A DNA stretch of 1,978 nucleotides from Escherichia coli. Its GTDB lineage: Bacteria > Pseudomonadota > Gammaproteobacteria > Enterobacterales > Enterobacteriaceae. Positions 660-938 of this stretch are shown here, in pieces. The position numbers and the translations under genes are program-made. Under the pieces are notes generated by a model, which saw only the letters and a list, made by a program, of their open reading frames with translations, searched no databases and was not told where the DNA came from. Location of the stretch: NCBI RefSeq assembly GCF_003334255.1, contig NZ_QOWU01000142.1; one strand, given 5' to 3'. Positions within the stretch are counted from its first letter, which is position 1. Every line of letters starts with the position of its first letter.

Positions 660-938
660 TTACCTCCAGATGCGTTGCAGGAATGTGCGGGACGGACGCG
701 GTGGGCGTTCAGAGTAAGGAAGCCTGACGGAGATTATCCAGTGACGATAATCGAGGCTGAGGGTTTTCCTAAACTCATACCCACGTCTGCGGTAGTTCTG
801 AATCAGCCATTCGGCCTGTTCTTCAGTGCATGGGGCGTGCTGTAACCTGTCAGATTTGAATGCATGAGAACGCCGCCCGTGCCTGCTGGCAAAGACGGCT
901 GAATTATCAGAATTGTATAATTTGGTATCGTGCGCCAT
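660..938 (-). CDS. Small hypothetical protein (92 aa), immediately downstream of hok; rem-like position
   Basis: Internal ATG (938-936) of the 660..1019 track ORF gives MAHDTKLYNSDNSAVFASRHGRRSHAFKSDRLQHAPCTEEQAEWLIQNYRRRGYEFRKTLSLDYRHW...; it is the only open minus-strand frame across this interval. The track's TTG start at 1019 lies inside the hok terminator stem and is discounted. Its TAA stop (662-660) sits 2 nt before a GGAGG-preceded GTG of the next gene, which looks like operon packing. Weak points: poor SD (GAGA) and several rare AGG/AGA codons. Confidence 0.4.
   Translation of the reverse strand: MAHDTKLYNSDNSAVFASRHGRRSHAFKSDRLQHAPCTEEQAEWLIQNYRRRGYEFRKTLSLDYRHWIISVRLPYSERPPRPSRTFLQRIWR

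Follow-up and report, generated by a model that had tools for sequence, protein, structure and literature searches.

A reading frame upstream of ydfU

We analysed a stretch of 1,978 nucleotides of Escherichia coli DNA (contig NZ_QOWU01000142.1 of RefSeq assembly GCF_003334255.1; hereafter the window), in which all genes lie on the minus strand. The subject of this work is a small open reading frame (ORF) of 92 codons, located just 3' of a hok terminator and immediately upstream of the nuclease gene ydfU, which an earlier note made from the letters alone had described as a rare-codon-rich frame, perhaps only partly real, corresponding by position to rem of the K-12 Qin prophage. The minus-strand frame and the translation quoted for it are confirmed by the sequence, the ORF list and RefSeq: the ATG occupies positions 938-936 and the TAA stop 662-660, and the RefSeq coding sequence WP_024192040.1, annotated as a 'hypothetical protein', has exactly the coordinates of the ORF. 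Its product has a computed mass of 11.2 kDa and a pI of 10.6. The statement that this is the only open minus-strand frame in the region holds for the most part, a 29-residue ORF being the exception. In the window the same frame is open in the 5' direction as far as a TTG at 1019, and a 119-codon form starting there was considered and rejected because it would cross the terminator hairpin and because the length of open frame ahead of the ATG ranges between 9 and 83 codons across alleles. An antisense gene, represented by a plus-strand ORF of 130 residues at 453-845, was likewise rejected because antisense frames have a ratio of non-synonymous to synonymous diversity (pN/pS) of 1.3 or contain stop codons in other alleles.

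The sequence preceding the ATG, CAGCAGAGACAACCG, contains a weak Shine-Dalgarno (SD)-like AGAGA, for which the computed duplex energy with the anti-SD is -2.9 kcal/mol, compared to -9.9 kcal/mol for ydfU and -8.5 kcal/mol for hokD, in keeping with the poor SD claimed previously. K-12-type alleles have GGAG as the SD of the ORF homologue (-6.6 kcal/mol). The repeated use of AGG and AGA arginine codons is also borne out, there being five AGG and one AGA among the 15 arginine codons (6 of 15); ATA and CGG each occur once.

An exact match (100% identity) to the window exists in a lambdoid prophage of E. coli JE86-ST05 and on three other chromosomes; in prophages of O157:H7 strains the identity is about 93%. 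In the full prophage, the replication genes are found upstream of the ORF, and rusA and the gene for the Q antiterminator come after ydfU, on the same strand as the ORF. This order places the ORF in the delayed-early 'nin' region.

Conservation and selection

A protein search returned 160 clusters of homologous proteins, almost all of them 90-92 amino acids long. At the nucleotide level, 83 loci yielded 81 full copies that retain the start codon, and the 43 distinct alleles among these copies underlie the allele counts given throughout. All 43 alleles (81 loci) are 92 codons long, and the overall pN/pS in the annotated frame is 0.22. Values of 1.1-1.9 are obtained for both of the other sense frames and for two of the three antisense frames. 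The third antisense frame has the wobble position in common with the ORF and scores 0.30, yet contains 4-9 stop codons per allele. Moreover, third-position variation is about three times that of the first and second codon positions. When the ORF is divided into regions, pN/pS is 0.54 in codons 1-26, drops to 0.16 in codons 27-66 and is lowest, 0.06, in codons 67-92, with synonymous diversity (pS) ranging from 0.22 to 0.42 (0.22 for codons 67-92). An independent clade of 66-residue relatives has a pN/pS of 0.126. In addition, megablast with the 279 nucleotides of the ORF gives matches in 2731 of 5426 complete E. coli genomes, with up to 7 copies per genome, and the annotation of these matches is always 'hypothetical protein'.

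The substitution patterns mark the ORF as a genuine, selection-maintained protein-coding gene of a prophage. It is an ordinary and very common one, already annotated in thousands of genomes, and its existence is not new. The earlier note had allowed for homologues in which the coding frame or the strand differs; both are conserved. The C-terminal segment of about 25 residues, which had been thought low in complexity and hence doubtful, is instead the best conserved part of the protein (pN/pS of 0.06) and is kept in the 66-residue homologues of other genera. The suggestion that only part of the ORF is real stands in an evolutionary sense, given that residues 27-92 form an ancient core, but not literally, residues 1-26 being kept in frame as well. 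Similarly, the description of a foreign-origin gene under weak translation is apt for a prophage gene that has weak initiation signals and rare arginine codons, but foreign origin does not hold as the cause of those codons, as discussed below. The published data sets that were searched contained neither ribosome-profiling nor genetic support for the K-12 homologue.

The phrog_1212 family

Residues 27-92 of the ORF protein match positions 1-66 of the 66 positions in phrog_1212, a PHROG family of unknown function, with E=1.1e-32. A profile search of 1.8 billion representatives gave 83 relatives, many of which are 66 amino acids long and align to residues 28-92 only; these short relatives come from Klebsiella, Salmonella, Pantoea, Hafnia, Edwardsiella and other Enterobacterales. 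The common pattern is WF...Y..RG...L.D..W.VS..LP...PR....QQR.W[R/G]-stop, and it is held at about 35% amino-acid identity across genera in which the DNA has diverged. Since the pattern is kept while the DNA differs, constraint acts on the peptide. An AlphaFold2 model based on a 46-sequence alignment has predicted local distance difference test (pLDDT) scores of 88-95 in the core (residues 31-80) and of about 50 or below in the N-terminal extension. The core is thereby predicted to be a beta-alpha-beta-beta domain followed by a Pro/Arg-rich tail, with residues 1-26 predicted to be disordered. Insertions and deletions among homologues within the extension are in-frame and of two residues only. 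Judged from these alignments, the ancient unit is residues 27-92, to which residues 1-26 are a faster-evolving, Escherichia-specific extension.

Homology over residues 27-92 extends to a set of 66-residue proteins encoded in nin regions, namely Gifsy-2 STM1021.1n, mEp237 gp51, phiES15 gp17, PY54 ORF47 and GF-2 ORF72, which are 35-47% identical to the ORF protein and have the WF...W[RG] pattern in common with it. Like the ORF, the genes for these proteins have their stop codon within the ribosome-binding site (RBS) of the next gene and lie between Orf/NinB-type genes and Q. Unlike the ORF, they are without the 26-residue extension, mostly contain fewer AGG/AGA codons, and are followed by NinG, a YbcO-like HNH gene or RusA rather than by YdfU. 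In the prophage of the window and in twelve other annotated contexts, the family gene lies directly against the next RBS, in the part of the early-right operon that runs from the replication/Orf genes to Q.

Searches for function covered several libraries. The ORF protein has no Pfam match at E<=10, a negative that includes the NinE, NinF and NinH models, and 46 family members have none at E<=0.001. There is no match to the ORF protein in NCBIfam or in the PADLOC defence library. A sequence profile search of the PDB gave a best E of 0.18, and Foldseek returned only family members plus weak DUF4177 and DUF4060 matches from AFDB50 and a single uncharacterised N15 ORF from BFVD. A fusion to YbcO/DUF1364 was considered as Rosetta-stone evidence and not used, because in P0154 the tail is replaced by out-of-frame sequence leading into the YbcO start, which we read as a frameshift read-through. 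Other long database matches are chimeras with unrelated N- or C-terminal parts. Two AFDB entries, A0A2X2YPE4 and A0A939NUB8, are listed as apparent fusions of the family core with DUF1364/YbcO and are likewise unused as evidence.

Comparison with rem of the K-12 Qin prophage

The assignment of the ORF to rem by position does not survive sequence comparison, and neither does the description of Rem as a protein of unknown function, given that Rem (b1561) has been shown to act as an antirepressor that relieves DicA repression of dicBp (PMC10448788). BLASTP of the ORF protein against K-12 Rem (83 aa, MMNIEELRK...) gives no alignment at E<=100, and the best match of K-12 Rem in the window by tblastn has an E of about 2. 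In K-12, rem occupies 1644651-1644902 (L003 3652-3903, where L003 is the Qin segment used for comparison) and ydfU starts at 1644304, leaving a gap of 346 bp between them. This gap holds an intact 92-codon homologue of the ORF with 76% amino-acid identity (NC_000913.3 1644306-1644584, minus strand; L003 3307-3585), so that rem and the ORF homologue are separate genes in K-12. The reference record carries no annotation for the homologue, and its exact protein sequence is widespread in the databases under the names 'hypothetical protein' or 'prophage protein'. Like the ORF in the window, the K-12 homologue has 92 codons and a TAA-c-GTG junction with ydfU. It differs in being preceded by rem, whereas the hok terminator directly precedes the ORF in the window, in having a better SD, and in retaining W31, F32 and Q87.

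When the window is aligned to K-12 with blastn, positions 1-955 correspond to L003 2648-3602, ending just beyond the start of the ORF homologue, and positions 1012-1275 correspond to L003 4025-4289, which includes the hokD terminator region. The short segment between these two matches stands in place of the rem-containing cassette (Table 1), and the window is thus without rem. Rem and the ORF protein are alike in being small proteins encoded on the same strand in the hokD-ydfU interval; they are unrelated in sequence, and their genes coexist in K-12 and in the PPompW phages, where gef/hok, rem, the ORF homologue and ydfU are four separate genes. Homologues of the ORF are labelled 'toxin to Rem' in ON470583.1 (L097 1501-1779), ON470612.1 and ON470619.1. 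A full-text literature search for this label led to unrelated papers only; the label seems to have been assigned by a pipeline without support and may mislead readers.

The junction with ydfU

The 3' end of the ORF reads ...ATC TGG AGG TAA c GTG, such that the GTG start codon of ydfU (658-656) comes one nucleotide past the stop codon of the ORF, and the tight packing against the RBS of the next gene that had been noted before is evident. This junction is conserved at all 81 loci, being identical in 80 and different by one base in the other, and codons 90-92 are invariant across the 43 alleles. In 9 of 10 other phages, the family tail is encoded by TGGAGG, TGGGGG or TGGAGA followed by TGA or TAA, with the next start codon 0-3 nucleotides further on, whatever the gene. 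Because the tail reads as an SD before various next genes, the terminal W-[R/G] is at least partly an RBS. A stop codon that abuts the ydfU start, with the SD inside the ORF, is the classic geometry of termination-reinitiation, and from this geometry we infer that translation of the ORF and of ydfU is coupled. Ribosomes terminating on the ORF would probably be the main source of initiation on ydfU and, if the two are coupled, the weak SD and the AGG/AGA codons of the ORF would limit the amount of nuclease.

Third-position diversity near the junction is uneven, amounting to 0.06 in codons 83-88 (675-692), 0.21 in the rest of the tail and 0.49 in codon 89. The third-position diversity of codons 83-88 is about 3-4 times below that of neighbouring codons even though their amino acids are conserved to the same degree as those of neighbouring codons. 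Codons 83-88 form one arm, and codon 89 the loop, of a predicted hairpin with the ydfU SD and GTG. We rejected this hairpin as a coupling device that masks the ydfU start, because occlusion is no different from that obtained with shuffled flanks and because the regional fold is unexceptional (z of -1.58); over 10 loci, the accessibility of the RBS has a mean z of -0.37.

A mechanistic analogue of the inferred coupling is provided by orf45, which lies upstream of anrP in the Gifsy-1 isrK locus and whose translation is required for translation of the downstream gene (PMC4825925). Both are small prophage ORFs with a stop codon abutting the next start. They differ in that orf45 is found at another locus without homology to the ORF, and in that the orf45 peptide is unconserved, whereas the ORF protein is under strong purifying selection.

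Genes next to the family

The gene directly 3' of the ORF encodes YdfU (DUF968) in all 81 Escherichia copies. DUF968 proteins have been described as an Orf-like DNA-binding domain fused to an HNH nuclease (PMC4118853; PMC5714182). Elsewhere in the family, the gene directly downstream encodes a YbcO-like HNH protein in mEp237 and phiES15, and NinG/Rap in Gifsy-2, GF-2, SPN3UB and Klebsiella phage 5 LV-2017. In Citrobacter phage Chris1 it encodes a RusA-like resolvase, an arrangement that a second clade shows in 75 of 80 viral contigs. Orf/NinB-type genes are often found just upstream of the family gene, as in mEp237.

The lambda genes for NinF and NinH are comparable in being small, packed against the junction-nuclease gene NinG/Rap in ninR, and of unknown or DNA-binding function; the ORF protein differs in having no match to the corresponding Pfam models or to NinE, and in some phages NinF co-occurs with the phrog_1212 family as a separate gene. 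With tblastn at E<=1e-3, the family was detected in 58 records of the phage collection, and lambda and P22 do not appear among the 40 of these 58 records that were listed.

Rare arginine codons and Rho

Codons of the AGR type (AGA or AGG) make up 33% of the arginine codons over the 43 ORF alleles, with a range of 25-40% per allele, and only 2.8% of the 1481 arginine codons in the adjacent ydfU (58 alleles). Given that ydfU is a co-transcribed neighbour, foreign origin fails to explain the enrichment in the ORF. An AGR codon is present at codon 19 in 41 of 43 alleles and at codons 51 and 72 in all of them, where AGA and AGG alternate and CGN never occurs. Codon 92, which is part of the ydfU SD, is also AGR in 43 of 43 alleles. 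The persistence of AGR need not mean selection, however, because a change between AGR and CGN requires a transversion.

The same prophage carries, near Q and downstream of a methyltransferase gene (L001 4639-4890, where L001 is the sequence surrounding the window), tRNA-Arg(UCU), tRNA-Arg(UCG) and a CAU-anticodon tRNA annotated as Ile. These tRNAs decode AGA/AGG, CGA/CGG and ATA, which are the rare codons used in the ORF.

The 3' third of the ORF contains a stretch richer in C than in G that is a candidate Rho-loading tract (Table 1), and in K-12 the corresponding place is 35% C and 21% G. The Rho-dependent termination zone ahead of ydfU in K-12 is reported to be among the strongest measured in vivo, and the microarray values indicate that rem is not Rho-sensitive there (PMC9160355). 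Because the zone is upstream of ydfU and rem is insensitive to Rho, the zone falls between rem and ydfU, around the unannotated ORF.

This copy of the gene and the rest of the window

Three positions that are near-invariant in the family carry rare substitutions in the window copy relative to the 43-allele consensus, namely W31R (2 of 43 alleles; codon at 846-848), F32L (3 of 43; 843-845) and Q87L (1 of 43; 678-680). The AGG at codon 31 is the result of the W31R mutation, from TGG. Most of the core residues that were checked (W31, F32, Y49, R/G52-53, L60, D63, W67, L73, P74, Q87-Q88 and W91) are present. The surrounding 18 kb (L001 113-12268) contain at least six pseudogenes, which comprise YdfR, two DUF551 fragments, an Ea22-like gene, DUF4752 and a frameshifted hypothetical gene, and the host prophage is probably defective. 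In view of the three rare substitutions and of a prophage with several pseudogenes, this copy of the ORF may be partly impaired or drifting, although its frame is intact.

Upstream of the ORF, the window contains a complete hok/sok-type locus (Table 1). Relative to shuffled sequences, the fold of the hok 3' untranslated region has z=-3.7. A mok-like frame of 70 residues begins at ATG 1318 and overlaps hokD. In K-12, relBE lies immediately upstream of hokD, unlike the arrangement at the hok/sok locus of the window. An isrK-like small RNA at 1016-1097 (minus strand) was rejected: the Rfam match covers the full length of the model, but it scores 27 bits, below the gathering score of 50, and falls on the hok 3' untranslated region and terminator. 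This match is probably the hok 3' fold-back plus the terminator. An unannotated hydrophobic frame of 27 residues, MIWPEAFAITGVAMAIAFLVYVICRCG, is found at 1647-1730 on the minus strand, and its ATG overlaps the stop codon of the DUF551 gene (ATGA). Neither this frame nor the 34-residue hydrophobic ORF has a match to a PHROG family.

Table 1. Positions of the features in the window (position 1 is its first letter; SD, Shine-Dalgarno; MFE, minimum free energy)
Feature	Position	Strand	Basis or remark
5' part (219 codons) of DUF968/YdfU His-Me-finger nuclease gene	1..658	-	RefSeq; phrog_96 'HNH endonuclease', E=3e-101
Predicted hairpin, ORF codons 83-88 with ydfU SD/GTG	652..691	-	MFE folds; drawable in all alleles; statistically unsupported
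92-codon coding sequence and TAA stop, phrog_1212 small basic protein	660..938	-	ORF list, RefSeq, PHROG, pN/pS
GGAGG SD of ydfU within ORF codons 91-92 (TGG AGG)	663..667	-	sequence; -9.9 kcal/mol
Codons 27-92, family core: predicted beta-alpha-beta-beta and Pro/Arg-rich tail ending W-R	663..860	-	PHROG, homologues, AlphaFold2, pN/pS
C>G bubble, 40% C / 17% G, candidate Rho-loading tract	679..756	-	sliding composition; 3' third of the ORF
Codons 1-26, Escherichia-specific N-terminal extension, predicted disordered	861..938	-	absent in 66-aa homologues; pLDDT; pN/pS
Weak SD-like AGAGA	945..949	-	sequence; 6 nt 5' of the ORF ATG
56-nt segment replacing the 422-bp rem-containing cassette of K-12 Qin (L003 3603-4024)	956..1011	.	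blastn
Intrinsic-terminator-like hairpin and T tract, 3' end of the hok transcript	1011..1037	-	terminator scan; 73 nt 5' of the ORF ATG
hokD, 51 aa	1106-1261	-	part of complete hok/sok-type locus 1106-1430
sok	1256-1430		full-length Rfam match, 118 bits (gathering score 59)
34-aa hypothetical gene, membrane-like	1507-1611	-	RefSeq-annotated
DUF551 pseudogene fragment	1727-1960	-	

Discussion

The ORF is the Escherichia-type, 92-residue form of a phrog_1212 gene and is not rem; taken together, these data suggest that it is probably translationally coupled to ydfU and encodes a putative partner of the junction-nuclease module. The observation made in the earlier note is confirmed and its interpretation is right only in part. 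On this preferred reading, the ORF protein would be a nucleic-acid-binding protein or a partner subunit of the phage ninR recombination/junction-nuclease module, as opposed to a regulator of lysogeny. The accessory role in the ninR module, suggested by gene order and charge, is the weakest link of the explanation and the least certain of its parts.

Several observations weigh against this reading. The predicted probability that the ydfU RBS is unpaired is 0.39, compared with 0.36+/-0.11 for shuffled flanks, and there is no excess occlusion. The RusA-linked clade has an AGR share of only 1.7%, so that the enrichment is specific to a clade and is not a property of the family. The published data sets that were searched gave no expression data for the ORF. 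The DUF1364 fusions in the databases look like frameshift read-throughs rather than true domain fusions. In PY54, PA-1, vB_Ecl_MII_001, Pocitis76 and vB_EhrS_59, other small genes or a methyltransferase gene lie directly downstream of the family gene, with NinG located 1-4 genes further downstream in four of these five phages. Finally, gene order in the nin region is conserved in any case, which makes synteny weak evidence of physical partnership.

Alternative explanations have to be set beside the proposed one. The ORF shares with K-12 rem its location between hokD and ydfU, and one set of phage records names it 'toxin to Rem'; nevertheless, the lack of any BLASTP alignment, the absence of the 422-bp rem cassette from the window and the presence of rem and the ORF as separate genes in K-12, the PPompW phages and others leave virtually no room for the idea that the ORF is the rem of Qin-type prophages, i.e., an antirepressor inactivating DicA. 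It is also very unlikely that the ORF is only a translated leader, or is untranslated, and that selection has acted on RNA or on the act of translation controlling ydfU-rusA-Q, on the model of orf45, instead of on the peptide. A leader of this kind would account for the weak SD, the rare codons, a stop codon one nucleotide before the next start, the ydfU SD inside the ORF and the reduced synonymous diversity at codons 83-88, and the coupling of orf45 is a precedent for it (PMC4825925). In the core of the ORF, however, a pN/pS of 0.06-0.16 is accompanied by high synonymous diversity (with a pN/pS of 0.126 in the second clade), the amino-acid pattern persists at about 35% identity across genera in which the DNA is different, and AlphaFold2 gives a confident compact fold. 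Moreover, orf45 itself shows the opposite behaviour, its nucleotides being conserved while its peptide varies (PMC4825925).

We regard it as quite unlikely that the ORF protein is an inhibitor or immunity-like partner that restrains the downstream nuclease, being made first and in stoichiometric amounts by virtue of coupling. The conserved place immediately 5' of four different nuclease families, the small size of the protein and an extended, conserved tail that might be a binding peptide are what such a partner would have. On the other hand, one family is unlikely to fit four unrelated or distant nucleases, of which RusA does not belong to the His-Me finger proteins, and nothing in the PADLOC defence library matches. 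Nuclease immunity proteins are typically acidic DNA mimics, and the ORF protein is strongly basic, with a pI of 10.6. A dual role for the ORF as a translation-gated attenuator is also unlikely. In such an attenuator, poor translation of the ORF would bare its C-rich 3' third and Rho would stop transcription before ydfU-rusA-Q, with efficient translation or N-type antitermination allowing passage, in analogy to the nin terminators by which lambda delays Q. The C>G bubble at 756-679 and the similar bubble in K-12, the strong Rho zone before K-12 ydfU together with the Rho-insensitivity of rem (PMC9160355), the 12-fold enrichment of AGR relative to the next gene, and the tRNA-Arg(UCU), tRNA-Arg(UCG) and CAU-anticodon tRNA of the prophage itself are all consistent with this mechanism. 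Against it, the published zone is given only as upstream of ydfU and is not mapped to the ORF, the Pro/Arg codons of the conserved peptide require a C-rich tract anyway, AGR enrichment is missing in another clade of the family, and a switch between AGR and CGN needs a transversion. It likewise seems to us unlikely that the ORF is at once a protein gene and a gate that senses translation. In such a gate, the weak SD and the positionally fixed AGG/AGA codons, which are decoded by the tRNA-Arg(UCU) that the prophage also encodes, would limit the coverage of the C-rich 3' third by ribosomes, and the supply of rare tRNAs would be linked to the timing of Q.

For the reading that we prefer, a conserved phrog_1212 gene coupled to ydfU, the consequences begin with nomenclature. 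Naming the ORF rem by position would spread a wrong name, Rem being a characterised antirepressor, and a 92-codon gene between rem and ydfU that is intact and maintained by selection is still missing from the MG1655 reference record. The gene is modestly interesting because of its unannotated K-12 copy, its placement before junction nucleases, its gene-specific AGG/AGA codons and a possible link to Rho upstream of Q. If the gate were real, it would explain the strong Rho-dependent terminator before K-12 ydfU, and the AGG/AGA enrichment beside this published zone allows a speculative but testable connection with the control of Q, the late-gene activator. The family is among the commonest uncharacterised prophage genes of E. 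coli, being present in half of the complete genomes, and, given its fixed place before YdfU, YbcO, NinG and RusA, it can reasonably be considered as a component or regulator that has so far been missing from the ninR recombination module.

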